Below, one piece after another: positions 15,505 to 51,976 of a stretch of 64,000 bases of DNA. Within the stretch, counting starts at the first letter, position 1. The number at the start of each line of letters is the position of its first letter. The position numbers were made by a program, and so were the translations under genes. The notes under the pieces were generated by a model. The model was not told the origin of the DNA, did not search any database, and saw only the letters and a program-made list of their open reading frames with translations. The stretch is from assembly GCA_964016885.1 (NCBI GenBank), contig OZ024740.1, forward strand, positions 198,586,001 to 198,650,000. Direction: 5' to 3'. Source of the stretch: Eledone cirrhosa. Taxonomy: Eukaryota.

Positions 15505-15658
15505 CAGTGGCGAAGGGTAACCTGGAAAGCAGGGCATGCAGTCCAATCGCCATGGCGGTAATTGGTGCTGTGCAGCCTTACAAGTTCCCTCTAAATGGCC
15601 CTCTTGGTCAAAGCTACATGTAGTCTTATCTAGTGTGTGAGTGTGTGAGTGTGCGTGT

Positions 15659-15690
<32 letters not shown>

Positions 15691-15944
15691 TATGTCTTTA
15701 TGTGTCTACGATTTAGCAAGCAGCCAAAATTCTGCTTGCCTCATCCGACGCTGTCGTTTGTCTGTGTGTATACGCGTGTGTGTGTGTGTGGGTGTTATCT
15801 TTTTATGTGTCTACAGTTTAGCAAGCAGCCAAAATTCTGCTTGCATCAACCAACGCTGTCGTGTGTTTGTGTGTATGTGTGTGTCTTAGTATTTTATGTG
15901 TCTACGGTTTAGCAAGCAGCCAACATTGCTTGCTTCAACCGACG

Positions 15945-16036
<92 letters not shown>

Positions 16037-16178
16037 GTGTGTCTGTCTGTTATCTTTTTATGTGTCTACGTTTAGTAAGCAACCAAAATTCTGCTTGCTT
16101 CAACCGACGCAATTGATCAACTCAAGATTCTATAACGCATGCACTGCATGCGTTGCATGCACGCACCCTTCGCCGCTG
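15505..16178. mobile_element. Non-autonomous TIR DNA transposon (hAT-like MITE) with internal minisatellite
   Basis: Terminal inverted repeats cagtggcgaagggt / acccttcgccgctg, atatatat on both flanks, and four internal copies of tgtgtctac..tttagcaagcagccaa...gacgc separated by (GT)n. Confidence 0.75.
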
Positions 16179-16188
16179 ATATATATAG

Positions 16189-16500
16189 AGAATAGAAAAC
16201 GAAAAATCAGTGATGCATCTAAACTCAATTTATTGTGTGTTACAATTGTTTCGCCGGCGGACAGCTCGAGACGCGATCATTGTGTGGATGTTTTGGATTC
16301 TGGACCCGCAGGTTCGACGGACACGTCTAATGATTTCGGAGAATATGCTCCGAAATCATTAGGCTTGTCCGTCGAACCTGCGGGTCCAGAATCCAAAACA
16401 TCCACACAATGATCGCGTCTCGAGCTGTCCGCCGGCGAAACAATTGTAACACACAATAAATTGAGTTTAGATGCATCACTGATTTTTCATTTTCTATTCT
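16189..16500. repeat. Near-perfect 312-bp palindrome (~153-bp arms, ~6-nt loop)
   Basis: The arms are reverse complements with few mismatches, centred at 16344/16345. Each outward strand contains GAAAC-AATT-GTA followed by AATAAA. Confidence 0.95.
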
Positions 16501-17430: not shown

Positions 17431-17881
17431 AGCTTCTCTTTAAGTTAGATAGAAGTTCATCAGATAAATCAGGGGGGAATAATGGCCTGTCCGTTTGCTA
17501 TTTACAAGCATACGAATTTGTAAGCAGAATTTCCTCTGCAGCATAATCGTATCGCCTAACAATAACTGTGAGGAATCGTGGACTCTATATAGAAAACATT
17601 ATCAATGACTATTGAGATATATGTGACATGTTCAGAGAGAAAAATAGAGAAAAATAATTTGGTTATGAAGAAAAAGTATGAGTTTCTCGTATATTCATCT
17701 TCTATAAAATATATTGTATATTAGAATTGGTGCTCTGAAATAGCGATATATATATGAATGTATATATAGTGTATTTTGCAATACACTGTATGCTTAATTA
17801 AAAGCATTTTTAAGACCTTACGCTATTGTTTTAAAGCAGTAACTATGTCACTTACTTCTTTTTTCAACAAACAAAGGGAGA

Positions 17882-17929
17882 TAAGCTGACAGATCTCCGT
17901 TTCAAACTGTTGGTATTCCTCAGAGCTTA
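17882..17929 (-). ncRNA. Type I hammerhead ribozyme (antisense copy)
   Basis: Minus strand: TAAGCT-CTGAGGA-ATAC caaca GTTT-GAAAC-ggagatct-GTC-AGCTTA. One stem II mismatch. Confidence 0.8.
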
Positions 17930-18135
17930 GCACTCCCTTTGTTCGTTGAAAATTATGAATGTTGAATTCTTATAGAATTCCAGTAATAATCAGGAACTGA
18001 TTATACAGAGCGGTTGCCGGTCCAGCAAAAATTTAAAATTAGAATTGGTGCTCTGAAATAGCGATATATATATGTATTTTGCTGGAATTCTATAAGAAAC
18101 CAACATTCATAATTTTCAACAAACAAGGGGAGTGC

Positions 18136-18183
18136 TAAGCTCTGAGGAATACCAACAGTATGAAACAGAGATCTGTCAGCTTA
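18136..18183 (+). ncRNA. Canonical type I hammerhead ribozyme
   Basis: TAAGCT-CTGAGGA-ATAC caaca GTAT-GAAAC-AGAgaTCT-GTC-AGCTTA. Stem I extends ~20 bp past a bulge (ttttcaacaaacaagggga / tccctttgtttgttgaaaa). Predicted cleavage after 18177. Confidence 0.9.
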
Positions 18184-18421
18184 TCTCCCTTTGTTTGTTG
18201 AAAAAAGAAGTAAGTGACATAGTCACTGCTTTAAAACAATAGCGTAAGGTCTTCAAAATGCTTTTAATTAAGCATAATACACTATATATACATTCATATT
18301 GTATATGCTTTTATATACTCATATTATGCGTAACTACTCAGAAATATTTGAAGTAGGCAGCCAATAAATAATTTGTAAATAAATGACAGTACAATTGGTC
18401 TAATAAATATTTTTCATGTAT

Positions 18422-18564
<143 letters not shown>

Positions 18565-32389: not shown

Positions 32390-35300
32390 TCAGTCTACAA
32401 GCACATACTCAGGGCGGACCCATTCACTCGGACCAGACTCGCCACTTTCAACAAACTTACTAGAAGACAGCACTTGCCTCTCCACTCTGATTTTCCTCTT
32501 CAAGTGAAACTTGAAAAAGTTAATCAGGGATTGGCCGGAGAGGAAAGTCTCCGTCTTCAACCCTTTCAACTTGTCCACCACACAATCTCTTTCGCGATGG
32601 CCACCAGGCAGAAGAAAACTGCCAGCCCTCCTCCTCTTTAAAGGAGGATGGCGGGGCTATCTGTACAATGGACTCGGTCGATAACCGGATCCATCCTACA
32701 CGCAACAGCAGCTGTTCGACATAGCTCCACAAGTCAGCAATCATTGGGCACTGAATGAGTGCGTACGGGACGGTTTCTTCGCCCTGCGCGCATCTCGGAC
32801 AGGCTCGGCTGATAGCCCCTCCGTGCCTGTAGAGCTTATCCAGAACCGGTAACGCTCCCCGTTAGCACTGCCAGGCCAGGGATTTCTGGAAGTTGTCCAT
32901 AGGCCCTGGTCTGAAAGTTCTCTTGAAGAGGGCGAACAGCTGATCGTTTTCGACTCCCAGAGTCTCCTCGAGAGCGTCGTCACTCTTTCTCTCCACAAGC
33001 CCTCTATAGAACGCCGAGGTGGATGTTCCACTGATACTAGTGCCCAGCTGGTAGAGGGCGGTGAGTGCTTGGAGACATTCCAGCTTCTAAGCGCTATCCC
33101 TCGGTTATTTCCCGATCCAGGATTGCAGCTCCGTCAAGGAGACGAGGTGGGGAAAAGAGCGTCTGACAAACGGCGAACACGCCTGTTCACCGTCAAGGAA
33201 GCACCAGAGATGTCCCAGTCTCAGCTAATGTTTGCGCATCATCAGCCACAGCGTGCCTAGTCCTCCACGCAACGGGTCTTGACAACAAATGGATCGTCTA
33301 ACCATGGGAGAACGACCCTTCCACAAAAAGCGGAAGAGAAGGCGCTCCATTTTGGTCAGAGTTTGGCGGAGGCAAGTTACGATGGTCAGGCGGTAGAAGA
33401 TAACGGCCCATTTGTGAGTCAGAGAGGCCACCCAGCTCGTCACCTCTCTCCAGTTCTTCTCCATCTGGAGGTTCGGATTGAACCAGACCCCAAGCAATTT
33501 AACCAGTCCTTCCGTCCAACACACCACGACGCTGTTGGACGACATGGACTTGCCTCTCCAGGTGCCGAGTTGCAAGCCCACCGATCTTTCCTGGTTTATC
33601 TATGCTTCTGTTACCGCTTCGTATTCCTTGAGAGCGGTAGAGAGCATCTGGACGTGTTTGGTGCTCGACACCACCACGGTGACGTCGTCGGCGTTAGCTG
33701 ACATGGATATCCCGCATCCCAGTTCCCGTGGGATCCCCCTCATCGTCTGCAATTTGTGCAGTAACAGCTCGAGGTCCAGTAGGTACAAGAGGGACGAGAG
33801 GGGTCAACCCTGGCGGACCGAGCGCATGATGCTGAAAGGCTGAGACAGGTGACCATTCACTCTCACAATCGAGCAGATGTCGCTGTGCATTGCAACGATC
33901 CAGCCCCTAAAAACGGGCCCGAAGCCAGCCGCCTCGAGGACCACAGCCAGGTACCGATGGTCGACCCTATCAAATGCTTTAGATTAATCCAGGTTAATCA
34001 GGGCCCCACCCGTGTCAGGTTCCTTAACCACACTCTGTATTATGTATCGCATGAGATTGAGGTTGTCGTGGTGGATCTGTCCGGAATGGCTCATGTCTGC
34101 GCCTCTCCCACCAGATCAGCGACGACAAGCGCCAATCTCTTTGCTAACACCTTGGCCAAAATCCGGTCTTTGCTAACACCTTGGCCAAAATCTTAAACTC
34201 TGCGTTTAACAAAGTTATGGGCCTGAAGTCTATAACGTCCCCTTTGTTCGGGTCTTTTCTCAGCAGCGCCATCGCTCTCCGGCTCACAAAACTAGGAATG
34301 CTCCCGTTCTGCTGCCAGTTGCAGTTGACATCTGCCAAGATGTCGTCGAAACGTTTGGCATATACGCATAAAGCTCGTAGTACAGACCATCCAAACCTGG
34401 CGATTTATCCCTCGTGCAGCCAGACATCACTTCCAGTATTTCACCTGCTGTTATCGGCTTTTCGCAACACTGCGCTACGGTCGTCGAGAGCCGCGGAAGT
34501 TTGTCGAGGTATGCACCGAAGTCCATACTCCGGCTGTTGAAAAGCCGCACACATCTGATCGGGTTCGAGCAAAGACCGAATTGTTAACTTGTGGCCACGT
34601 CGAACCTCCACCACCCGGGCCCATTGAACGGCTTTCGTCCCCTCGTGTCTTAGAGAGCGCGCTCTAGCTAGGACAATGCAGCCTTCATGCGTTGAAGAAT
34701 TGGTCGAGTGTCAATCTCGCCGCAAGCAAATCGGTTGCGATGCCTGTCCTAAACGCCTCTTCTAGCTTTCTATCGAACTCTCCCTCTACTCTATTTTCCT
34801 CTATCGCTACTCCTTTGCTAAAACTCTTATCGTTTATACTCTAATAGCCCTTTTCAGGGAAAACCAACACCTGTTGTTGACGATCGCACCCGTCAACACA
34901 CGCTTAAATAATTCGCTAATCCGGTCTCTGTAAGCTTTGCGGGCCGGGAACGACGCGTTCAGCTTCCAGTAGCCGGGTCCTTGGCTATGAAGTCTATCTA
35001 ACTCAACTTCACAGATCACAAATGTGTGGTCCGTGTAGTCGAGTACTTTAAATTGTGGACAACCTACACTAGCCTTATCTGTTTCCCTACAGAATACCCT
35101 ATTTAAATACGATCTGGATGATCCGATGCAGTTTGTCCATGTCCACATTGGCACCCATCGGATATCTAGTCTATACCTGTCAGACAGTTCAAAACGTCTG
35201 AGTAGGTTCTTGAGGCTTTTACATCCTCGTGCTCTGTCTACTAGCCCCACCTAATCCCAGCGTGCATCTAAGATACCGTTCCAGTCGCCCACTAACACTA

Positions 35301-35706
35301 AAGAGCGGGACGTTCCAAGAAATGTCTCTAGACGTCTGAAGAAATCTGGCCGTCCTGCCCCTGTTGGGGTATAGATGGCTACTAGCCTGAAAGCATTGCC
35401 TTCGCTGCCGGTCACGTTCAGCACCACCGACTTACCTTCTGGGTGCAGGAAGATGGCCCGTATGGCGAGTTCCAAGCCACTCCGAAAAAGCACAGCAACT
35501 CCACCTCCCGCTCCTGGACGGCTGGGAGATGCGTATACATCGTAGCCGCCAAAGATCGATGCGAAGGCTCGTGCTTCGGAGATGCTCCTCTCGCTGATGG
35601 CCACCACATCTATGTTTAGTGACCTGAGGTCGTTGAGTATGTGACCCTGCTTCCAAGATGGCCCCAGGCCACGTATATTTATACTGCCTATTCTAAGTAC
35701 GGCCAT
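32390..35706 (-). pseudogene. Tx1 copy A ORF2 (APE endonuclease + reverse transcriptase), disrupted
   Basis: SINIRGL, LVGDWN, YTDH, GYWKLN, KSPGLDGL, FRPITLLN, NADDVT across several frames. Confidence 0.9.
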
Positions 35707-35744
35707 GTTGGTTGAGGAAACGGGGTAAGTGATAAATGATCAAT

Positions 35745-37723
35745 TTACCTTGATCGTGTGGGGAAGGGACAGTAGAACCGTCACTTTGGCTACGCATGGC
35801 TGTTTTCAAGGAGATGTCGGTGTATATCCTCTTGGTAACCGACCCTCTGAAGTCTCCAACTGCGTTGGGGAATTTTTCTTTTGAATGTTTTTAATGTTCT
35901 ATTTTAATTTTAATGATGTTTATATTTTTCAAGAGAGTTCTTGTGATATCTGTCTGCTGCTTTATATGTTGTAAGACGTCTTTATTTACCATGTTAATAG
36001 TTGTGTACTTTTTAGGATGAGGGGTGGTTTTGTTGCTGTTTTCTTGTTGCTGTTGCGTGCGTGTGCTTCGTTGTAGTTGCAATGTTGGTGTTTTTGGTGA
36101 TGTTGGTGGTGATGTGGTTGTTGTTGGTGGTGATGCTTGTGGTGGTGATGGTGATGGTGGTGGTGTTGCTGCAAGTCTCCTTGCAGCCTTTACACCTCTT
36201 TGTTTGCCTTCGCTCTTGGATTGTGAAGCTAAGGTTTTGTTTTTTTTTTTTTTTGTTTTTGTGGCAGACCGTTTGCCACTTCCCTCCCACCTCACACTCC
36301 ATGTCGGATCCCGTGGCGTCTGGGGTATGAGCTCCACTGCTGTTGGTGGCAGTAGTGGAGCCCGCTCCGGCGATATTGACGCCGGTATAGCTACTGCGAC
36401 GGTTGGTGTTGCCGCCACTCCTGCCGCTGTTTTAGTTGTCCGTGGCCTTAGTATGGGTACCACGGACGGTGCCCTCCTACTCACTATGGAAGGGTCTTCT
36501 GCCTCTGTTGCCTGTTCTGCTCTTGGTAGCAGCGGATCAGGCGTCGGAAGGAGGGGGACTTCATCTTGGCTGTCTTCTGTGGCCAGAAGAGCCTGAGGGG
36601 ACCCTTCTGCCGACAGAGATAGTACTTTGGACGTCTTCCTTCCACGCTTATAGGGAGTTGGAGTCCTTCCTCGAGGTCTATGATATCTGGGATGGCCTCA
36701 ATACAGTTTGTATTAGCATTTGGTCAGTTTGTATTAGCATTTGTATGCCTATTTCTGACCGGTTCTCTCTTCACATTCATTTTCTGTACTTGGAGTATAA
36801 TGGTCTTCTCCTCGATTCCAGCAGGTACAGACGCGGCCAGCCAAGGTATGGTCACGTCGGACCTGGGTCACTCTGACCCTCACAATTTTCTGCCCGCAGT
36901 TGGAGGGCACCAAGACTATTTGTTCACTCTTTAAGGTTTCCAAAGAGTGAGACTTCACCGCTTGGGGGTGGCGAAAAGTACGTCTACTGTGGCGTACTTT
37001 TTCCCTCGGGTGATGTGGGTTTTGCGCGCCCAGACGCACCTCAAGACCTTTTAGATTTGAGCCTCCGTGGCTCTCTCCACCCGATGTCACATTTTGCATA
37101 CGGTGCGGTAAGTTACCATGCGCAGTTCCTGGTCTTTAGACATCGGATGGAGGTTTCAGGGAAACTCTATTGTTATTTCTTGTCACCATGGCTCTTGCGA
37201 CTGCCCCCTCCTCTTCCCTGACTAGCACTGTCTCTATATTTCGGGCCACACCTGCGAAGGAAGTGGCCCCATTTTCAGCGGCACCATTATTGCTGCCGCT
37301 ACTGCTGCTACTGGTCTCGTTGTTGATGTTGTTGCTGTTGCTACTTCTACAAACGGTGTTGATGGTGTTGTTGCTGTTATCACTGTTGAAGTTGGTTGTG
37401 TTTTTGGTGCCACCTCTGTTGTTGTTTCTGCTGCAATTTGTATTGTTGCTGTTGTTGTTGTCGTTGTTTATTTTCTTGTTAATGGTGTTAATATCGTTGT
37501 TGCATTTGTTGTCACTTTTTTCTGTTATCCCTATTTTGGTTGTCGCTGTTATTTTTGTAGTTGGTGTGGTAATCTTTTTAAAATTCGTGTTCTCAGTGTT
37601 GTTGTCTTTGTTCACGTTGTTTGTGGTGGTGTTTGTTGTATCAATTTCTGTAACCCTCCTCTCAACTTTTACGCCGCTGTCGCACGACAGCAGACGTATT
37701 GCTGGCGGGCGTAGCTAAGCCAT
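35745..37723 (-). pseudogene. Tx1 copy A ORF1, disrupted
   Basis: N/T-rich N-terminus, SFAGVARN and LVPSNCGQKIVRV are shared with copy B ORF1. Confidence 0.8.
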
Positions 37724-39296: not shown

Positions 39297-42200
39297 ATGT
39301 CTAATGATAAAATCTCATACCGGATCGGCCGTCACCCGGATCAGAGAGGAAACAGACTGGGGTCGAAAAATCAGCTAATGGTTCAAACCTTCCCATCACT
39401 TCGGAGCTGGAGACCTCCCATAACCGGAATACTCCTACTGTTGGCCCTCCATGCTCACCACCAAGAAATCCAAAGAAAAAGAGAGAGAAATTGTCTAGGG
39501 AAGACAATAAAGAAGTCCTTGAGGCTTTCTACACTGCCATGTGCTACCCATCAAATACATCGAATACAGAACAGACATATATCAACTGGAAAAATAAACA
39601 TCCCGAAAACTGAGGCTATATTGACAGTAACAAACTAGCCAATATACGAAGAAATATTGTAAAAAAAATGTTACTAACTGATATAGAAATTGATCAGATC
39701 AAGCTATTAGCACAAAGTCAGCGAAGGGAAAATGAAACATGTGTCAGTGAAAACGAGGTAAATTGTAACACTTCGAATCCCAGGGTTGGGGCGGAATCAC
39801 TGACAACAGAACAAATTAAAGAAAGGATCGAAAAAGTGGAGGGAGTACATGCTCAAGATGAAACTCCAAATGAAAACAATGAGATCGTAAATGATAAAGA
39901 AATGAATGCGAATGAACTTGCCAACTTGAAGGATGAAATTATGAACGAATGGATGAAAATGAAAAAATCTGACATGGGGGAACGAGACACCCTCCCTAAG
40001 ATCCAGAACTCCAAACAGAACCAAAAGATAATACACAAGACTAACATAATTATCAAAAAAATTATCATCACAAACAAACTAAACATTACTGATTTAAATC
40101 ATCTCTATTATGCATCGGCTAAAGTCACCACTCACTTATGTGGAGTGAAGATGAAAAAACAAAGGAATTTCCACAAGAAATCTACTTGGCAAGAAAAAAT
40201 CAATCGCCAAATAAACCTTCTCCGATCTGGCATAGACATTTTAAAAAACAAACTAAACTTAAAAAATTGAAAAGAAAGTACAGTATAAAACCAACAAGTG
40301 ACATAGGCATGCTGATAGAAATAATCAAGCAAAAAGTGTCGGCCAAAGCTGCTCGTATAAGGCGCTTTGAAAAACGATCTAGATTTTATAAGGACAATAT
40401 GTTCAAAACCAACCAAAGAAACTTCTACAGAAAAATTAGTAAGTCAACAATAACTGCTAAATCAATACCACCCAAGGAGGAAGTGCAAGAATTCTGGGAA
40501 AAGATCTGGGCCGAAGAAAAAGTTCATAATATATGGATAGACAGACAAATGAAAGATACAGCTCACCTTGAGGAACAAACATGGGAAAATATAACAGTTG
40601 GACAGTTGCGTTTGGCTCTAAGAAAAACCAGCAAATGGAAATCCCCAGGAAAAGACAAAATACAACATTTTTGGATAATTGTCTTCACAGAGTCTCATGA
40701 GCTGTTAGCCCAACTTTACAATGAAATAGTTAAGGAGCCAGAAAAGATAGCATCATGGCTAGTTAACGGCATTACATTCCTGCTTCCGAAGAATGATGGA
40801 CAAACAATCCCAAAAATTACAGACCGATAAATTGCTTGACCACAATGTGTGAAATTTTAACATCAGTCCTAACTGAATATACATATAACCACCTGATAAC
40901 ACATGACCTATTTCCCATTCAGCAGAAAGGGTGTAAACGAGGCTCATATGGCTGTAAGGATCAGCTTTTGGTTAACAAAATGATACTGGAAGATTGTCAT
41001 AGTAGACACACAAATCTATCAATTGCTTGGATAGATTATAAAAATGCATTCGATAGTTTGCCACACAGTTGGATTGAAAAATGTTTAGAGATTTTCAAAA
41101 TATCCCCCGTTGTCAGGAGGTTTTTGTCATTCAGTATGAAGACATGGAAAACGACACTCCTTTTGAATAGTGAAACAAAATCACTGGAAGCTGGAGAAGT
41201 TAATATTAATTGTGGAATTTTTCAGGGTGACTATTTATCACCGCTTTTATTCTGCATCGCACTTATACCATTAAGTAAAATGCTCAATGAAACAAAACAT
41301 GGATATAAAGTCTATGACAAAACCATTAATCACTTGTTCAACACGGATGACCTGAAACTATTTGCAAAAAATGATGAACAATTGCAAGGGCTATTATCCA
41401 CTCTGGAGCAGTTCAGTGATGACATTAAAATGGAGTTTGGACTAGATAAATGCGCCAAAGAAACGTTCACCAGAGGAAAGCTGCTGAAAAGTTCAGACAT
41501 TAATCTTGATCGAGGGAATGTGATAAGAGAACTTGATCAAGAGGAAACTTACAAATATCTAGGTGTTTGTGAAGGAGACGGAATCAAGCACTCGACAATG
41601 AGGGTAAGGATAAGGAAGGAATGTTACCGTAGAGTAAGAGCAATTTTAAGAACGGAATTGAATGCAAGGAATAGGATCGATGCCATAAACAGGCTTGCCA
41701 TACCAGTAGTAACCTACAGTTACAATGTCATCAACTGGTAAAACACAGAGATCCGTAGGCTCGATACAAAAATTCGAAAATTTTTAACCATGCACAGAAT
41801 GCATCACCTTAAGGCAGATACATATAGAATACATCTCCCTAGGAAAGAAGGAGGACATTGCGTTGAAAACTGCAACAATTGGATTATCTACATATCTAAA
41901 GGAATCACATGATTGGATGATCAAACTCGTTTTGAAACACGAAAGCATCAACAGATCATACTCCATTACAAAATATGCACAAAGATACAGTAATGGACTA
42001 CACATTTCAGAAGTCCCATTTACTGCTGAAATGGAAAACACAGAAAAAGCAAAGCAGGTAAAAGTAACTGCAAAGAAAGAACTGCTACAGAGACTGGCTA
42101 AGAAATGGCAAGAAAAGCCTCCGTATGGAAAATACCCAGAACGAGCTAACAATCTTGATGTTGACAAAACTTTAACCCATCAGTGGTTAGCATCCTCTGG

Positions 42201-42850
42201 ACTGAAATCGGAGAGTGAAGGACTGATTATATCAGCACAAGATCAGTGTCTGCCAACATAATAAAAAATGGATGCAGCCCATTATGCCGTGTATGTAAAA
42301 AACAACCAGAGACCATTGACCATATAATTTCAATGTGCAGTCCTATAGCTCCAACCGAATACCTAAACAGGCATGACAAGCTGCACAATACATACATTGG
42401 ATAATGTGTAAGCATTTTGACCTGCCCCATCAAAAGAATTGGTGGGAGCATCAACCACCTCCCATACTTGAAAAAGATCACATCTCAATCTTGTGGAACT
42501 TTAGCATCCAAACAGACCGAAAAACAGATGCAAATAGACCTGATATAATATTGAAGGACTTTAAAAAGAGAGTATGCCTGCTAATTGATATGTTCGTTCC
42601 AATAGACAAGAATGTATCTATAAAAGCATTTGAAAAATTGAGCAAGTATAAGGACTTGGAGATAGAAATTGGAAAAATGTGGAAATTGAGAACTAAAACA
42701 CTACCAGAGGTTGTAGGTGCTCTAGGAATGATACCTAAGGGGTCTAATGATTACTTATCGCAAATCCCAGGAAACCCGCGTATAGGAGAAATACAAAAGA
42801 TAGTACTAATGGGAACTGCCCATATACTAAGGAACATTCTGTCAATATAA
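39297..42850 (+). pseudogene. R4/Dong-like RT-REL polyprotein, frameshifted
   Basis: KSPGKDKI, QKGC, WIDYKNAFDS, GIFQGDYLSPLLF, NTDDLKL (YMDD mutated), YKYLG, CRVC..ETIDHIISMC, RHDK, NRPDI..LIDM, KYKDL. Confidence 0.9.
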
Positions 42851-43296: not shown

Positions 43297-46200
43297 TTAC
43301 AGATATATACTCAGAGTAGGCCCATTCACTCGGGCCATTCTTGCTTCTCTCACCCATCTTTCAACAAAATGCTGGGAAGAGAGCACTTCCCTCTCTACTC
43401 TGATTTTCCTTTTCAAATGAAATTTGAAAAAGTCAATCAGAGCATCACCGAAGAGGTAAGTGCTCGTCTTCAGCCCTTTCAAACGTGTCCACCATACTAT
43501 CTCTTTCGCCATGGCCACCAGACAGATAAAAACTGCCTTGCCTTCCCGGCTAAAGGATGAGGGCGGGCCAATCCTCACGATGGACTCAGATGATAGCCGG
43601 ATCCGTCCTAAACGCGACAGCAGGTGTTCGACATAAACCCACAAGTCAACAATTTTCGGACAGTGGACGAGTGCGTGCAGGACGGTTTCGTCGCCCTGCG
43701 CGCATCTCGGACATGCCCGGCTGACGGCACCTCCATGCCTGTAGAGTTTATCCCGAACTGGCAAGGCTCCTCGGTAGCACTGCCAGGCCAGAGATTTCTG
43801 GAAGTTGTCCATAGGCCCTGACCCGAAAGTTCTTCCGAAGAGATTGGCTAATTGATTTTCGTCGACGACTAGAGTTTCCCCAAGTACGTCGTCGCTCTTC
43901 CCCTCCACTAATCCTCTATAGAACGCCGAGGTGGAGTTTCCACCGATCACATTGCCCGATTGGCCGAGGGCTGTCAGCGCCTGAAGACATTCCAGTCTCC
44001 AGGCGCTCCCTCTCGGTCTTCGCTTGACCCAGGACTGCAGCTCCGTCAAGGAAACGAGCTGGGGAAATACGTGTCTAGCAAACGGCGACTACACCTGATC
44101 ACCGTCGAGGAAGAGGTGGAGATGTCGTAGCCTGAGCGCGTGTCTGCGCATCATCAGCCACGACATGCCCAGCCCTCCACGTAGCGGGTGCTGACAACAG
44201 ATGGACCGCCTGACCATCGGAGCGCGTCCCTTCCACAAAAAGCGAAAGAGCAAACGCTCCAGCGCAGTCAGGAGAGGCTTAGGACAAGGTACGACGGTCA
44301 GGCGGTAGCAGATGACAGACGCGATGTACGCGTTAGCCACCTCCGCTCGACCTTTCAGGGATAGCTTCCTCTCCGCCCATTTCTGGGTGAGAGAAGCCAC
44401 CCTGCTCGTCACCTCGTCCCAGATTTTGTCCGTCTGGAGGTCCGGACCGAACCAGACCCCTAGCAATTTAACCGGTCCGTCCGTCCAGCGTCCAACGACG
44501 CTGTTGGAGGGCATGGACGTGCCTCTCCAGGTGCCGAGCTGCAGGCCCACTGACTTTTCCTGGTTGATCATTGCTCCTCTCACCGCTTCGTATTCTGTTA
44601 GTGTAGTGCCGATCGCCTCGATGTGTTTGGCGTTCGACACCACTACGGTGACATCGTCCGCATATGCTGACACGGATATACCGCATCCTAGTTCGCGCGG
44701 GACGCCCCTCAACGTCTCCAGTTTGTGCAGTAATGGCTCGAGAGTCAATACGTACAAGAGGGACGAGAGGGGACATCCTTGGCGGACCGAGCGCATGATG
44801 TTGAACGGTTCCGACAGGTGACCGTTCACTCTCACCACAGAGCAGATGTCGCTGTGCATGGTAGCGATCCAGCCTCTGAAGACGGGCCCAAAGCCAGCCG
44901 CCCTCAGGACTGCCGCTAGGAAACGATGGTCGACCCTATCGAAAGCTTTCGACTGATCTAAATTGATCAAGGAGCCACCCGTGCCAGGTTCCCTAGCTAC
45001 CCCCTCTACGATGTATCACATGAGGTAGAGGTTGTCGTGGATGGATCTGTCGGGAATGGCGTATGTCTGCGCCTCTCCCACCAGACCACCAACGACAAGC
45101 GCCAACCTCTTTGCTAGCACCTTGGCCAAAATCTTGAACTCTGTGTTTAGCAGAGTTATGGGCCAGAAATTATCTATGTTATCCCCCTTGTTCGGATCCT
45201 TTCTCAGCAGTGCCACCGCTCCTCGGCTCACATAACTGGGAATTCTCCCGTTCTGTTGCCAGTTGCAGTAGACGTCCGCCAAGAGGCCTCCGAACAAGTC
45301 TGGCATCTGTACGTAAAGTTCATAGGGCAGACCATCCAAACCAGGCGATTTACCCCTTGTGCAGCCAGTCATTGCCTCCCTTACTTCAGCGGCTGTTATC
45401 GGCTTTTCGCAACACCTCGCCTCAGTGGCCGAGAGCCGCGGCAGTCCGTCGAGGTAGACACTAAAGTCCATCCCTCGATCCGGCCCACCGCTGCCCCCGA
45501 ATAGCTGAGCTAAGTGTCGCTGAAAAGCTTCACACATTTGCCCGGGATCGAGTAGCATGCGCCCGTCGTGGTCCACCAAAGACCGGATCGCGGCTTTGTT
45601 GCCACGACGCGCCTCCGCCATTCGGGCCCATTGAACGGCTTTCGTCCCCTCGTGTCTGAGAGCACGCACCCTTGCTCTGACAACGCAGCCTTCGTGCTTT
45701 GTATTGAAGAATTGGTCAAGGGCCAATTTCGCCGCAAGGACGTCGGTCGCAATGCCTTTGCTAAGCGCCTCGTCTAATTTTCTAACTAGTTCTCCCTCTG
45801 CTCTATTTTTCTCTATTGCTAAAGCCTTACTAAACCTAATGGATTCTATTCTACTCGCTCTTTTCAGAGCAAACCACCACTTGTTGTTGACGATGGCCCC
45901 GTCAAGGCCCGCTTAACTAGTTCGCTAATCCGGTCTCTGTAGGCCTTGCGCGCTGGTAAGGACGCGTTTAGCTTCCAGTAGCCGAGTCCTCGTCTATGAA
46001 GCCTATCTAAGTCAAGCACACAGATCACGAATTTGTGGTCCGTGTAGCTGAATATCTTGAATTGTGGACAGCCTATGCTAGACCTATCTATTTCCCTACA
46101 AAATACTCTATCTAGATATGATCTGGATGACCCTATGCGATTTGTCCAAGTCCACATTGGCACATTCGGGAAATCCAATCGGTATCTGTCAGACAGTTCA

Positions 46201-46714
46201 AAACGCCTGAGCAGGTTGGTGAGGCTCTTGCACCCTCCACCCTTATCCGCTAATCCCACACAGTCCCAGCGTGCATCTAAGATCCCGTTCCAGTCGCCCA
46301 CTAACACTAAAGAGCGGGGCGTTCCAAGAAAGGTCTCCAGACGCCGGAGAAATCAGGCCGCCCTGCTCCTGTCGGGGCATAGACGGCCACTAGCCTGAAC
46401 GCTTGCCCGTCTCCGCTGGTCATGTCCAGCACCATCAACTTACCCCCTGGGTCCAGGAAGATAGCCCGTATGGCGAGATCCAAACCTCTCCAAAAAAGCA
46501 CAGCAACTCCACCCCCCGATCCAGGACGGCTGGGAGATGCGTACACATCGTAGCCGCCGAAGATCGGTGCGAAGGCCCGTGCTTCGGAGATTCTGGTCTC
46601 GCTGATGGCCACTACATCTATGTTTAGTGACCTGAGGTCGTTGAGCAGGTGACCCTGCTTCCATGACGACCCCAAGCCACGCGCATTTATGCTGCCTATT
46701 CTGAGTGAGGTCAT
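43297..46714 (-). pseudogene. Tx1 copy B ORF2 (APE, RT, C-terminal zinc finger), few frameshifts/stops
   Basis: SINARGL, ISETR, VYAP, GDWN, YLDRV, YTDH, LDQSKAFDRVDH, VRQGCPLS, YADD, CPRC..ETVLHALVHC. Confidence 0.93.
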
Positions 46715-46749
46715 GTTTAAAATAGAGTGGAAAAGATGGGAAAGACCAC

Positions 46750-48801
46750 TTACCGTACTTTTCGTAGAGGAGGGATGGTTTTTACATCCCTTTTCACTTG
46801 ATCGTCTGGTGAAGGGACCGTTGAATCGTCCCTTCGGCTGGTCGTCGGCTCTTCTATGAGTATGTCCGAATATACTCTTCGATTGATAGTTCCTCCTAGG
46901 TCCCTGAAATCACCAACTGCGTTGGGGAATTTCGTTTTAATGTTTGTGTATTGTTTCTGTGCTATTTTTAGCAGTCTTATGTTAGTTGGCGTTTTGATTG
47001 GTGCTGGTATTATGTAGTCGTGTTGTGAAATGTCTGTGTGTTCAATTATGTAAGACATTAGTTTATTGTTGTGTGTATTTATCGCCGTGCATTTGTTTTT
47101 CTGGGGGTGGGGTGTGGTTCTGCTATTTTCTTGTCGTTGTTGCTGGGTGTGTGTGTTTTGTTGTTGTGTTTGCGATGTTGGTGCTTGTGGTGGTGGTGTT
47201 GAAGGTGTTGTTGGCGGTGGGGTTGTCGCCGGTGGTGATGGTGGTGCTAGTGTGGGTGGTGATGGTGTTGGTGGTGTTGCTGCTGTGAGTCTCTTTGCAG
47301 TAGACTTTACCCTTTTCTCATTTCTTTCCTCCATTTTCAAAGGCGACGATGCGCTGCTTCTGCGTTTGTGCCTTCTTACGACCTTTTGTCATCCCTCTCC
47401 CACCTCACACTCCATGTCTGATTCTGTGAGGTCGGGGAGCTGTACCAGCTCCACTCTTTCACTTGTTGTTGTTGGTGATGTTTGCACTGGAGTCTCTGTT
47501 GCAGCTGCATTTGGTATTGCTGTTGTTGTTGTTAATATTTCCACTGCTGCTGCTGTTTTTAATTTCCGTGGCGTGGGTATGGGTGCCACGGACCTATCGT
47601 TCCTGGTTGCCGCTTGTCCTGTTGCTGGTAGCCGTGGACCCAGTTCCTGAAAGAGGGGGGTTTTCTCCTTTCTCAGAGTCTTCTCGTTGCAGAAGGCCCT
47701 GAGGTGAGTCTTTGATCCACAGCGAAAGCATTTCGGGCCTTTGCCCTCAACACTTATGGGCAGTTGAGTGCCGTTATCGAAGTCTATCACATCCGGGATA
47801 GCTTGGATGCACTCCTGGTTGGTTTGGATTAGCATCTCAATGGAGGTGCCGACCCAATCTTCTCTTACTTTTTTCTGTACTTGCAGTACAGTTGTTTTGT
47901 CATCGATTCCGACGAGGACAGACGCGGCCAGCCAAGAAGGGGCCATCCCGGGGGGGGGGACGTGGGTCAGTTTGACCCTCACAATTTTTTGCCCGCAGTA
48001 GGAGGGCACCAACACCATTTCCTCGCTCCTTAGGGTCACTACGGATTGAGCCTTTGCCTCCTGGGGTGTGGCAAAAAGTACGTCTACGGTGGCATATTTT
48101 TTGCCTCGGGTGATGTGCGTTTTCCGCTGCCACACAGACTCCAAGGCTTTTTGTATTTGGGCCTCTGTGGCTCTTTCAACCCTACGGGATTTTGTACTTA
48201 CTGTACGGTACGTGACCGTACAGTGCTGTTGGGTTTCGAAAAATGTTTCCGCTGCCTTGCAGATTGCTCGGTGTCCAGTCTTTGTCACCATCTTCTTCGC
48301 TTCCTCTAATTCCTCATTTGTTATGAGGATTGTTTCCAGGTTTTTCGCAATACCTGCAAATGAGATTGGTTTTTCTTTGCTGCTGTTGTTGTTGTTGTCG
48401 TCAGAGCTGCTGTTACTTTTGTTGTTGCTGCAGGTACTACGACTACTGTCTCCGCCGCTGTTGCTGTGGTTGTTGTTGGTTTTGCTGCTGGTGATGCTGT
48501 TGCGGCTGCTACTGTTGTTTTCATTGTCACTGTTGCTGTTGTTATTACGGCTGCTACTGCTATTATTCCTGACGTCAGACGAATGAACTGGGTTTTCGTA
48601 TTTCCCGCACACCTGTTTCGTCGTTGTCGTCGTCGTCGTGGAGAAATCTTGCACGCTTTGCACGAGACTTTTCTTTTTTGTCGTCGCTTGCGAAAGAGAA
48701 GGGAGGGAGAGAGACAATCTTCTCTCTGCTGTAGTGATGATTGAGGAAGAAGAAGACGGAATGAGTGGGAGTGACCTATGAAAATTCTTTTTCGTAGCCA
48801 A
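46750..48801 (-). pseudogene. Tx1 copy B ORF1 (gag-like, CCHC zinc knuckle), one frameshift
   Basis: 470-aa plus 196-aa ORFs; CFRCGSKTHLRAFC fits CX2CX4HX4C. The start is a non-ATG codon in this copy. Confidence 0.85.
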
Positions 48802-49062: not shown

Positions 49063-51976
49063 TTTCATTTATTAGCCACAAGGGCCGACATGTAGGGGAC
49101 AATACAAAGACAGGGACAGTGGGGGTTTACAATAAGGTCGAGTAAAAGTGCACAATGGCAAGACTAATTTAACAATGAAAATATAAAAATATAAAATAAA
49201 CTATGCATAAATATAACAAAATAAATTCCCCGATAGGGGGTGGACGACCTGGGGTGATTCGGGTACCCCACCAATCCTGAACCACCCTGCGCTTCTAGGG
49301 CACCCAGGGAGAGCACCCCTCTCCTCAAGTTAGCCAGCCTATAGGCGCATGGTCAGAGTAGGCCCATTCACACGAGCCATTCTCGCCAAATTCACCCACC
49401 TTTTAGCAAATGTACTGGGGGGCAGCACTTCAATCTCCACCGTCACTCTCCTTTCCAGGTGAAACTTGAAGAAGTTGATGAGGGATTGGCCGAAGAGAAA
49501 AATGTTTGTCTTTAGTTTTTTCAACCTGGTCCACCATATAATCTTTTTCGCAACTGCCACCAGACAGAGGAAAATGTCCTGCTCTTCCTGACATAAGGAA
49601 GGTGGCGGCTCGATCTTCACTATGGACTCGGCCGATAGCCGGATTCGTTCCACACGCGACAGTAGCTGTTCGACATAACTCCACAAGTCAGTAATGCACG
49701 GACATTGGACAAGTGCGTGCAGAACGGTTTCGTCGTTCTGTGCGCATCTTGGGCAGGTCCGTCTGACAGCACTTCCGTGCCTGTAGAGTTTATCCTGAAC
49801 CGGCAGTGCCCCCCGGTAGCACTGCCAAGAGAGGGATTTCTGGAAACTGTCCATCGTCCCCGGCTCAAATGTCCTCCGGTACAGACTGATCAGTTCGGCT
49901 TCGTCGAGGCCCAAAGCTTCTCCGAGTGCGTCATCGCACTTGCCCACCACTAATCCTCTATAGAACTCGAGAGTGGATGTTCCACTGATCGCATTGCCCG
50001 CTTGGTAGAGGGCAGTGAGTGCCTGGCAACATTCCAGGTGCCAGTCACCCAGTCTCGGTCTCTTCTTGACCCAAGACTGCAGCTCAGTCAAAGAAATGAG
50101 CTGCGGAAAGGCCCGTCTGATAAACGGCGACCACACCTGTTCACTGTTTAGGCAGAATATCTGGAGATGTCGCAGCCTCAACGCATGTCTGCGCATCATT
50201 GGCCACGGCATGCCCAGCTCTCGCGTAGAGGGTGCGGGCAGCAGATGGACCGCCTCACCAACGGAACTTGTCCCCTCCACAAGAATTTGAAGAGGAGACG
50301 TTCCAACTTGACGAGGCGCGGACGGGGGCAATGCACGACGGTTAGGCGGTAGTAGATGACGGACGCGATGTACGCATTCGCCACCTCCGCGCGACCTTTC
50401 AGTGATAGCTTCCTCCCAGCCCATTTTTGGGTGAGACTGGCTACTCTGCTCGTTACCTCGTCCCAATTCTTTTCCACCTAGAGGTCTGGTCCTAACCAAA
50501 CCCCGAGCAACTTTACCGGTCCGTCCGTCCAGCGCCCCACGATGCTGTTGGACGGCATGGGCTTGCCTCTCCAGGTTCCGAGCTGCACGCCCACCGACTT
50601 TTCCGGGTTAAGTTTGGCTCCTGTCAACCTTTCATATTCCTTCAGTAAGGTGCCGACCACCTCAATTTCTGAGGTGTTCGACACCATCACGGTGATGTCG
50701 TCCTCATAAGCCGACACCGCCTTTCCACGTCCCGGTTCAAGAGGGATGCCCTGAAACAGCTCTAGCTTCCGCAGTAAAGGCTCGAGAGTCAATACGTACA
50801 GAAGGGAAGAGAGCGGGCACCCTTCACGGACCGATTGGGAGAGCCGAAATGGTTCCGAGAGGTGGCCATTAACCTTGACCACCGAGCGTGTGTCGCTGTG
50901 CATTGCAACGATCCTGCTTCTAAAGACAGGGCCGAAGCCAGCTGCTTTGAGGACAAACTCCAGATACCGATGGTCGACCCTATCGAATGCTTTCGATTGA
51001 TCTAAATTATTCAGTGCCCCACCGAAGCCAGGTTTACACCCTACCCTCTCTATGATGTATCGCATGAGGTGGAGATTGTCGTGTATGAACCTGGCTGGGA
51101 TTGCGCAAGTTTGCGCCTCCCCAACCAAATCCTCGACGACAAGCGCCAATCTCTTTGCTAACACCTTGGCCAAAATATTAAACTCTGTGTTGAGCAGAGT
51201 TATGGGCCTGAAGTTGTCTCATGTATCCCTCTTGTTTTCGTCTTTTCTTATCAGCGTCACCACTCTCCTGTTCACAGAACTGGGAATACTCCATTCTGCT
51301 GCCAGTTGCAGTAGAGTGCTTCGAGGAGTTCGGAGAACAATCTGGCATATTTACGTAAAGCTCGTAGGGCAGGCCATCCAAACCGGGTGATTTGCGCCTC
51401 ATGCAGCCGACAAGGGCGTCCTGAATTTCGGCTGAAGTAATCGGCCTTTCGCAGCGCTCAGCGTCGACCGTCGAGATGCGCGGCAAGCCGTCAAGGTAGG
51501 GACTGAAATCTGCTACTCTCTCAACTCGCCACTCTCTCTGAACAACCGAGCAAAGTGCTGGCTCAAGGCCTCACACATCCGCTTGGAATCGCTTATCTCG
51601 TGTCCGTCTCGGTCCGCCAAAGACCGAATTGTGGTTTTATTACCACGCTGCGCCTCTGCCACGCGGGCCCATCGAACAGCTTTAGTTCCCTCGTTTCTCA
51701 GCGCACGCGCCTTAGCTCTGACAATGCAACCTTCGTGTTTGGCGTTGAAGAAATGGTCTAATGCCATTCTCGCCGCTAGCACGTCAGTTGCGATGCCACT
51801 ACAAATAGCCTCGTCTAACTTATCTACCAGCTCCCCCTCCTTTCTATTTTTCTCTAACGCTAGTTCTTTGCTGAACTCTATCGAAGTTACTCTAATCTCT
51901 CTTTTGAGAGAACCCACCACCTGTTGTTGATGATCCCCCCTATCAACTTTTGCTTAACTAAATTGTTGACTCGGTC
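49061..51976 (-). mobile_element. 5'-truncated Tx1/L1-clade LINE (copy C, distinct subfamily)
   Basis: LDQSKAFDRVDH, VREGCPLS, YEDD, CPRC..HALVQC. The 3' end lies in the (AAT)14 tract at 49019-49060. Confidence 0.92.

Follow-up and report, generated by a model that had tools for sequence, protein, structure and literature searches.

The window, a 64,000-nt stretch of Eledone cirrhosa DNA, contains a two-armed insertion of a 318-nt protein-free repeat that carries a predicted type I hammerhead ribozyme. We consider it highly probable that the repeat is a non-LTR retrozyme, that the reverse transcriptase (RT)-endonuclease of a Penelope-like element (PLE) copied it into AT-rich DNA, and that the fold-back at the locus is a by-product of this copying. 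The unit matches non-LTR retrozymes in size and form, being 318 nt long and non-coding, with a GC content below 50%, one type I hammerhead and no apparent LTR/PBS/PPT organisation. Its insertions also have the PLE layout, and the non-autonomous PLE- or retrozyme-like class proposed in the first-pass annotation is likely correct.

Self-comparison of the window showed a fold-back of ~580 bp with inverted arms of ~220 bp where the first-pass annotation had placed it. The core match of the arms (17789-17986/18079-18276) is 198 nt, ungapped and 95% complementary, with 92 nt in between, and the full arms (17752-17986 and 18079-18299) differ by 8 substitutions inside the arm and by a 14-nt deletion in the right arm. 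The annotated 36-bp direct repeat was recovered as 37 nt of exact match (17720-17756/18038-18074), or 39/40 nt when extended to 17759/18077. Mapping on the 30 best-matching loci showed that the 92-nt "spacer" usually sits reversed in front of the arm, indicating that the unit is a 318-nt minus-strand monomer (positions u1-u318). The monomer reads from 18077 to 17760 and is followed by 40 nt of its own start (17759-17720); no ORF of at least 150 codons overlaps it. Both 3' ends point outward, the left one with the 40-nt extension and the right one stopping ~8 nt past the monomer join. The copy is ~4% diverged, and a candidate AT-rich direct repeat of 9-11 nt, which may be due to chance, brackets both arms (Table 1).

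Table 1. Features of the two-armed insertion, in window coordinates
Feature	Position	Strand	Basis
Left copy of the candidate target-site duplication, ATATTGTAT; AT-rich, 9 nt or, counting an ambiguous AT, 11 nt; may be chance	17711..17719	+	Read from sequence
40-nt tail (u1-u40 repeated), the outward-pointing 3' end of the left arm; equals the direct repeat annotated earlier	17720..17759	-	Tail concept: PMC8557442 (available text), PMC11167929
Retrozyme-like repeat: complete monomer of 318 nt (u1-u318) lacking an ORF	17760..18077	-	Same register found as the unit of 45 insertions, with u318->u1 at tandem joins
Type I hammerhead with damage: U.U mismatch (helix II, 17905) and G.U pair (helix III, 17898); cleavage predicted after 17888	17861..17952	-	
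Fold-back loop, 92 nt: monomer u1-u91 plus one junction base; no separate spacer	17987..18078	.	
Second copy, inverted and 5'-truncated: u92-u318 and ~8 nt more; tailless, with 14 nt deleted close to its end	18079..18299	+	
Type I hammerhead, intact, helix I extended by 20 bp; core at 18142-18148, cleavage predicted to follow C18177	18113..18204	+	
Candidate target-site duplication, right copy; overlaps the AT-rich end of the element	18296..18304	+	Read from sequence

The right arm contains a complete type I hammerhead that can be read from the sequence, in agreement with the canonical ribozyme with a ~20-bp extended stem I annotated there. It comprises helix I (18136-18141/18178-18183) with its extension (18113-18132/18185-18204), the core CUGAGGA (18142-18148), helix II (18149-18152/18158-18161), GAAAC (18162-18166), helix III (18165-18168/18173-18176) and GUC with C17 at 18177; the CUGANGA/GAAA/NUH core, the three-way junction and the open helix I are those of type I. 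This was the sole descriptor match on either strand of the 64 kb. The 101-nt region 18110-18210 folded at z -6.1 against 200 shuffles and the 61-nt core alone at z 0.2, indicating that the fold signal stems from the helix I extension. The Rfam hammerhead models gave no match at the gathering score in the 64-kb window and none at E<=10 in 17500-18500; these models may miss this hammerhead variant. Rfam matches to MIR1435 and MIR1319 (51 and 26 bits) were far below the cut-offs and were rejected as reflections of the hairpin.

The left arm was annotated as carrying the same hammerhead on the opposite strand. We found that this copy, with its core starting at 17923 on the minus strand and C17 at 17888, is damaged: the U.U mismatch at 17905 breaks helix II, for which the predicted pair probability was 0.00, and helix III contains a G.U pair at 17898. 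Each change is private and occurred in 1/54 parsed copies. For the isolated right arm, the predicted probabilities of helices I, II and III were 0.5-0.7, 0.6 and 0.4, respectively. For the whole-locus transcript of either strand, all ribozyme helices had predicted probabilities of 0.00, and the full transcript was predicted to fold into a rod (about -363 kcal/mol) hiding both ribozymes, as the first-pass annotation had anticipated. For read-through RNA, its further proposal that a transcript of either polarity could self-cleave once appears unlikely, since the complementary arm is transcribed first.

We find it extremely improbable that the 580-bp fold-back is a functional ambisense unit in which the strands self-cleave or the rod masks the ribozyme as a switch. 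A hammerhead core does occur on both strands of the window locus, the predicted rod would mask it, and ribozymes were found on both strands in 17/45 insertions of the window's subfamily and in 7/12 insertions of a sister family. Nevertheless, the unit is the 318-nt monomer, the junctions and arm lengths vary freely among copies, the window junction is unique among the 45 insertions, 28/45 insertions bear ribozymes on just one strand, private changes have damaged the left ribozyme, and the predicted masking is complete, leaving no switch. The annotation of the fold-back with one ribozyme per strand as the element itself is therefore not supported. Since the left ribozyme is damaged and the read-through transcript is predicted to mask both, the window copy is probably inert, a dead end. 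The locus has one ribozyme per strand, and two in tandem are required for monomer release; the sole likely RNA product of this copy would be a 220-bp duplex within a read-through transcript.

Stem III had been described as ACAGA/TCTGT, longer than in minimal PLE hammerheads and possibly active as a monomer. It is indeed longer than the usual minimal PLE form, but it consists of 4 bp with an AGAU loop and not of a 5-bp hairpin, since the loop would then be 2 nt. Helix III is usually 1-2 bp according to the available text of PMC4209133, a length exceeded by the 4 bp of the window copy, and a 4-bp helix III is normal in kind for retrozyme-type hammerheads, unlike minimal PLE-type ones. In most subfamilies the helix is palindromic through its loop, perfectly in three different sequences and near-perfectly in the others, and the window form was predicted at -1.8 kcal/mol as a hairpin vs -12.2 kcal/mol as a homoduplex. 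A palindromic helix III is linked to dimer cleavage by type I hammerheads in the same available text. Monomer action is possible, given the helix III probability of ~0.4 in the isolated arm, but the palindrome and the much more stable homoduplex are a known mark of dimer-acting type I hammerheads. The 4-bp helix with its loop, palindromic across subfamilies, suggests that dimer cleavage would be at least as likely as monomer cleavage.

Stem covariation was seen between subfamilies. When the right arm was compared with the sister family over 34 pairs, by hand, with the structure drawn from one of the two sequences and helices II and III registered by hand, 17 pairs were unchanged, 10 had double changes, 5 had compatible single changes and 2 were broken; the changed pairs were thus kept in 15/17 cases vs 6.9 expected (p about 7e-5). 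The core 3-8 pair changes from C3-G8 in the window subfamily to U3-A8 in the sister family, and across 77 distinct contexts it was C-G 39 times and U-A 36 times (75/77), with a search pattern that admitted only C/U and G/A at those positions. Helix II has four different forms across the subfamilies, each fully paired. The window's own subfamily showed no covariation, its changes being scattered decay, and CUGAGGA is kept in 52/58 of its copies, part of that sample having been chosen by CUGAGGA. On comparative sequence grounds, we regard the hammerhead as well supported by the between-subfamily covariation.

The repeat is present in many genomic copies, as the first-pass annotation would lead one to expect. 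Exact 21-mer searches of the 3.0-Gb assembly gave 217 matches for the core of the window subfamily, 1148 for the sister subfamily and 4449 for the shared 3' part; reversed 21-mers gave 0 each time. The window subfamily is 3.9% diverged from its column majorities (84 pieces). The sister family is 79% identical to it and includes a young set, in which the best 40 of 1191 candidates were 100% identical over 141 nt and many lie in 317-nt tandem arrays. Further subfamilies were found at loci L161-L213 and L235, and the variety of the family is visible in contigs from three sequencing runs of one sample. Tandem arrays consist of 316-318-nt units joined u318->u1 with no ORF between, and those of the sister family reach 6 units. 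At least two consecutive complete hammerheads in tandem are present at L044 and L050 and in the sister arrays, and are lacking at the window locus. Two sister arrays with a U3-A8 core are very young, with units 99-100% identical: L140 (G000:C3:49862744-49865175), 4+4 units head-to-head, and L131 (G000:C3:179580478-179581886), 5 units in tandem. The monomer circle was predicted to be strongly self-paired (-84 kcal/mol, z about -6.5 vs 60 crude shuffles).

We examined 45 distinct insertions of the window subfamily, which comprised 29 best matches and 16 position-ordered ones after overlapping loci and one segmental duplicate were dropped. The results showed that 32 were head-to-head with the 3' ends outward, 3 were mixed and 10 had a single orientation. 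The head-to-head insertions included 18 with a tail at one end and none at the other, 4 with no tail, 1 with a tail at both ends and 9 with one irregular end, so that exactly one end carried the tail in 18/23 cleanly classed cases. The window locus was counted among the 9 irregular ones only because BLAST stopped at the 14-nt deletion; read directly, it belongs to the tail/no tail class. In the sister set, 8/12 insertions were head-to-head and all 8 were tail/no tail. A further 17 position-ordered sister insertions included 11 with both orientations, and 8/8 of those with both ends intact were tail/no tail. In the clean young cases the tail is on one arm only (16/16). The inversion junctions and arm lengths differ by copy, no second copy with the window junction was found among the 45 insertions, and the flanks are mostly (TA)n. 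A MITE or foldback DNA transposon was rejected, as the ends are unequal (tail/no tail), the arms and junctions vary, and solo and tandem forms occur. At L034/L036 (G000:C1:26512603-26518524), an inverted duplicate of an entire insertion, flank included, lies ~2.6 kb away.

Partial copies start at u187 in three loci, 4 nt upstream of the predicted cleavage site u191, and elsewhere at u195-298. Hammerhead cleavage as the source of the template's 5' end was not supported, since the starts are at u187 or spread over u195-298 and not at u191. The inversion junctions of L197, L199, L209 and L189 lie inside the helix I or helix III palindromes of the ribozyme, which suggests joining by microhomology at hairpins.

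The two arms of an insertion share variants. In two young arrays, a private variant was present in every piece of both arms (9/9 and 4/4) and absent from other loci, 13 loci having been examined in all. In the older subfamily, shared non-majority letters occurred at 0.0054 within insertions (47 pairs) vs 0.0018 between them (3315 pairs), a ~3-fold difference. Opposite arms agreed at four polymorphic columns in 13/17, 17/20, 32/38 and 31/38 cases vs 59, 64, 49 and 48% between insertions; at one polymorphic column, u140, the window's two arms differ. In the position-ordered sister insertions, divergence was 0.040 between opposite arms, 0.020 between same-strand units and 0.058 between unrelated insertions. 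A circular template, as proposed in the available text of PMC7229834, fits this sharing. A homogeneous multimeric transcript as template, or later gene conversion, may also explain it.

Local duplication would yield shared variants as well, and snap-back junctions at an internal hairpin were seen at L060, L197 and L199. Such observations are what one would expect if a single copy was inserted first and the inverted arm arose later, by DNA-level fold-back or a template switch at AT-rich, hairpin-rich sequence. We judge this origin very unlikely, because a copy of the first arm would not yield unlike 3' ends, and the arms end at different family-typical 3' ends, one with and one without the tail, in all 16 clean young cases. 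Very young, near-identical insertions are two-armed already, and at the window locus the candidate target duplication encloses both arms.

In LINE-1 twin priming, both target strands prime cDNA, which gives an inverted 5' part, and the inverted piece derives from a different, upstream part of one RNA. In the family described here, by contrast, the two arms span one and the same sequence and each terminates at a 3' end of the element.

Copying by a PLE enzyme, which we favour, would proceed as follows. Tandem arrays would be transcribed, and the hammerheads, acting as dimers or monomers, would cut the array RNA to monomers, which would likely be circularised by a host ligase. The PLE enzyme would nick both strands of an AT-rich target and prime cDNA from each nick, one beginning near u5-14, the second at u40. 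These cDNAs would extend for variable lengths (0.1 to 6 monomers) and join at their 5'-truncated ends. More tentatively, the family may be the genomic record of a PLE copying ribozyme circles, in which one complex would prime both nicked strands on one circular RNA, always at two different start sites, and roll round it to give head-to-head arrays that share private variants; this is a possibility to which we give somewhat less than even weight.

ORFs of PLE-type RT plus GIY-YIG are abundant in the genome by motif, with some open frames of more than 700 codons, and the Pfam GIY-YIG model scored above its cut-off in 150/150 ORFs. We found no RT or GIY-YIG ORF within or attached to the unit, and an autonomous PLE as the identity of the unit was rejected, with no RT plus GIY-YIG ORF between pseudo-LTRs (pLTRs). 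The unit was not found as the terminal 3' repeat of an autonomous PLE among 110 PLE loci, a set drawn from few of the many PLE families (30 loci of family A, 30 of family B, 20 of a third family and the 30 top Pfam GIY-YIG loci). The best PLE match to the unit was a 23-nt AT-rich stretch in family A (E 0.005). Copies of the hammerhead family lie near a PLE ORF at L064, L072, L214 and L235 as separate neighbours, and an ORF piece at L019 matched nothing in Pfam.

These data bear on the view that the copies are 5'-truncated ends (solo pLTRs) of an autonomous PLE and that no independent retrozyme exists. PLE insertions are heavily 5'-truncated and leave such pairs (PMC8557442, available text), truncated Schistosoma PLEs carry dual opposite-strand hammerheads 100-700 bp apart (PMC4209133, available text), and two copies (L062 and L063) lie directly 3' of PLE ORFs, the one at L062 abutting a truncated ORF end, a single case. 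We nevertheless consider it unlikely. The monomers join u318->u1 in runs of up to 6 that no ORF interrupts, and in 29 other copies the PLE family beside L062 and L063 carries a different 3' region of its own. Furthermore, 0 of 74 mapped insertions (45+12+17) were seen to continue upstream into shared sequence, the all-against-all test covering the first 30 loci.

Two PLE families gave observations of their own. In family A (L067-L093), the 15 of 30 loci inspected by eye show, ~500-650 nt past the ORF stop, a hammerhead-like fold whose helix II holds an insertion of ~75 nt and whose core is CUGAUGA/CCGAUGA. A young and very abundant family was found at L061:753-2808 (72,399 first-look candidates), with open frames of up to 747 codons and 94-97% protein identity among the best 149 other matches; a relaxed core search found no consistent hammerhead in its 3' region.

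The repeat resembles the metazoan non-LTR retrozymes of Cervera & de la Pena 2020 (PMC7229834, available text) as a 150-450-bp, protein-free, low-GC repeat with one type I hammerhead per unit, in solo to tandem copies, with coexisting PLEs and a strongly self-paired predicted circle. It differs in that the commonest insertion is a head-to-head array with the PLE tail at one end ("inverted" occurs 0 times in the main text of PMC7229834) and in that most subfamilies have a U3-A8 core. Retrozyme target-site duplications, when present, exceed 4 bp; here the window locus has the 9-11-nt candidate and most other copies lie in (TA)n. PLE mobilisation of retrozymes is a hypothesis based on co-occurrence and pLTR similarity in the available texts of PMC7229834 and of a preprint by Li et al. 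2026 (10.64898/2026.07.22.740005). The preprint argues for a PLE origin of vertebrate retrozymes and, by its available text, sampled no mollusc; it reports that 8/9 predicted frog retrozymes failed to cleave in vitro and that 24/57 frog families matched a TE (21 of 22 PLEs), in contrast to the 110 PLE loci here, where no matching autonomous pLTR was found.

PLEs with an endonuclease (Penelope/Poseidon, Neptune, Nematis and Naiad) share with the family the partial tandems, the inverted 5'-truncated copy, the one-ended tail of 30-40 nt, the AT-microsatellite targets and the hammerhead in a terminal repeat (PMC8557442, available text; PMC11167929). The first of these describes PLE insertions as partial tandems whose 5' end carries an inverted, 5'-truncated copy, with an often one-ended 30-40-bp tail and a (TA)n bias, and names the way in which PLEs make tandem and inverted insertions as an open question. 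In the second, purified PLE protein nicked both strands of AT-rich DNA and extended them, two start sites bounded the tail, no start-site difference between the strands was seen, and hammerhead cleavage proved dispensable in vitro. In contrast to these PLEs, the unit has no RT or GIY-YIG ORF, and its hammerhead combines a long interrupted helix I with helices II and III of 4 bp each, whereas the PLE form is minimal. Opposite-strand hammerhead pairs 100-700 bp apart and a U3-A8 core have already been reported (PMC4209133, available text), both in the Schistosoma Cercyon PLE, whose motifs differ in being minimal (helix II of 7-8 bp, little helix III) and in lying in the pLTRs of coding elements. 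Among the literature matches listed, we found no report of a hammerhead or retrozyme family of this kind in cephalopods, although the supplement of PMC7229834, on other invertebrate retrozymes, may bear on this; a 2026 octopus repeat annotation mentions ribozyme 0 and retrozyme 0 times. The literature matches listed included nothing directly on twin priming with Penelope or on a retrozyme with a tail.

The window also contains other repeats. A second near-perfect palindrome, of a different repeat family, occupies 16189-16500, with 156-nt arms (97%), no spacer and AT/CA-rich flanks; it has 79-93% matches in 5 unrelated loci and is probably another head-to-head pair of 3' ends. A GAAAC..GUA stretch is present in it, and no upstream hammerhead core was seen there. 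At 15505-16178, TA-flanked 14-nt terminal inverted repeats (13/14) enclose four ~110-nt repeats split by (TG)n, an arrangement resembling that of a non-autonomous DNA transposon. Motifs alone identify the broken endonuclease/RT frames of LINE type at 35254-36697, 39614-42847, 43300-47388 and 50481-51218.

The window locus itself is an ordinary and probably dead insertion; its family is likely a new one among the retrozymes, a parasite type already known. Many near-identical copies of this hammerhead repeat, which codes for no protein, display the complete signature of PLE insertion, and the one-tail rule together with the template sharing between arms would tie retrozymes to PLE enzymology by mechanism, beyond homology. 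The family also offers a set of natural hammerhead variants in which the 3-8 pair (C3-G8 or U3-A8) and helices II and III are swapped. Both the one-tail rule and the young branch with the U3-A8 core provide handles on the PLE mechanism and, if circles are indeed copied, this very young branch would make this reading and the partner PLE directly testable in a mollusc.
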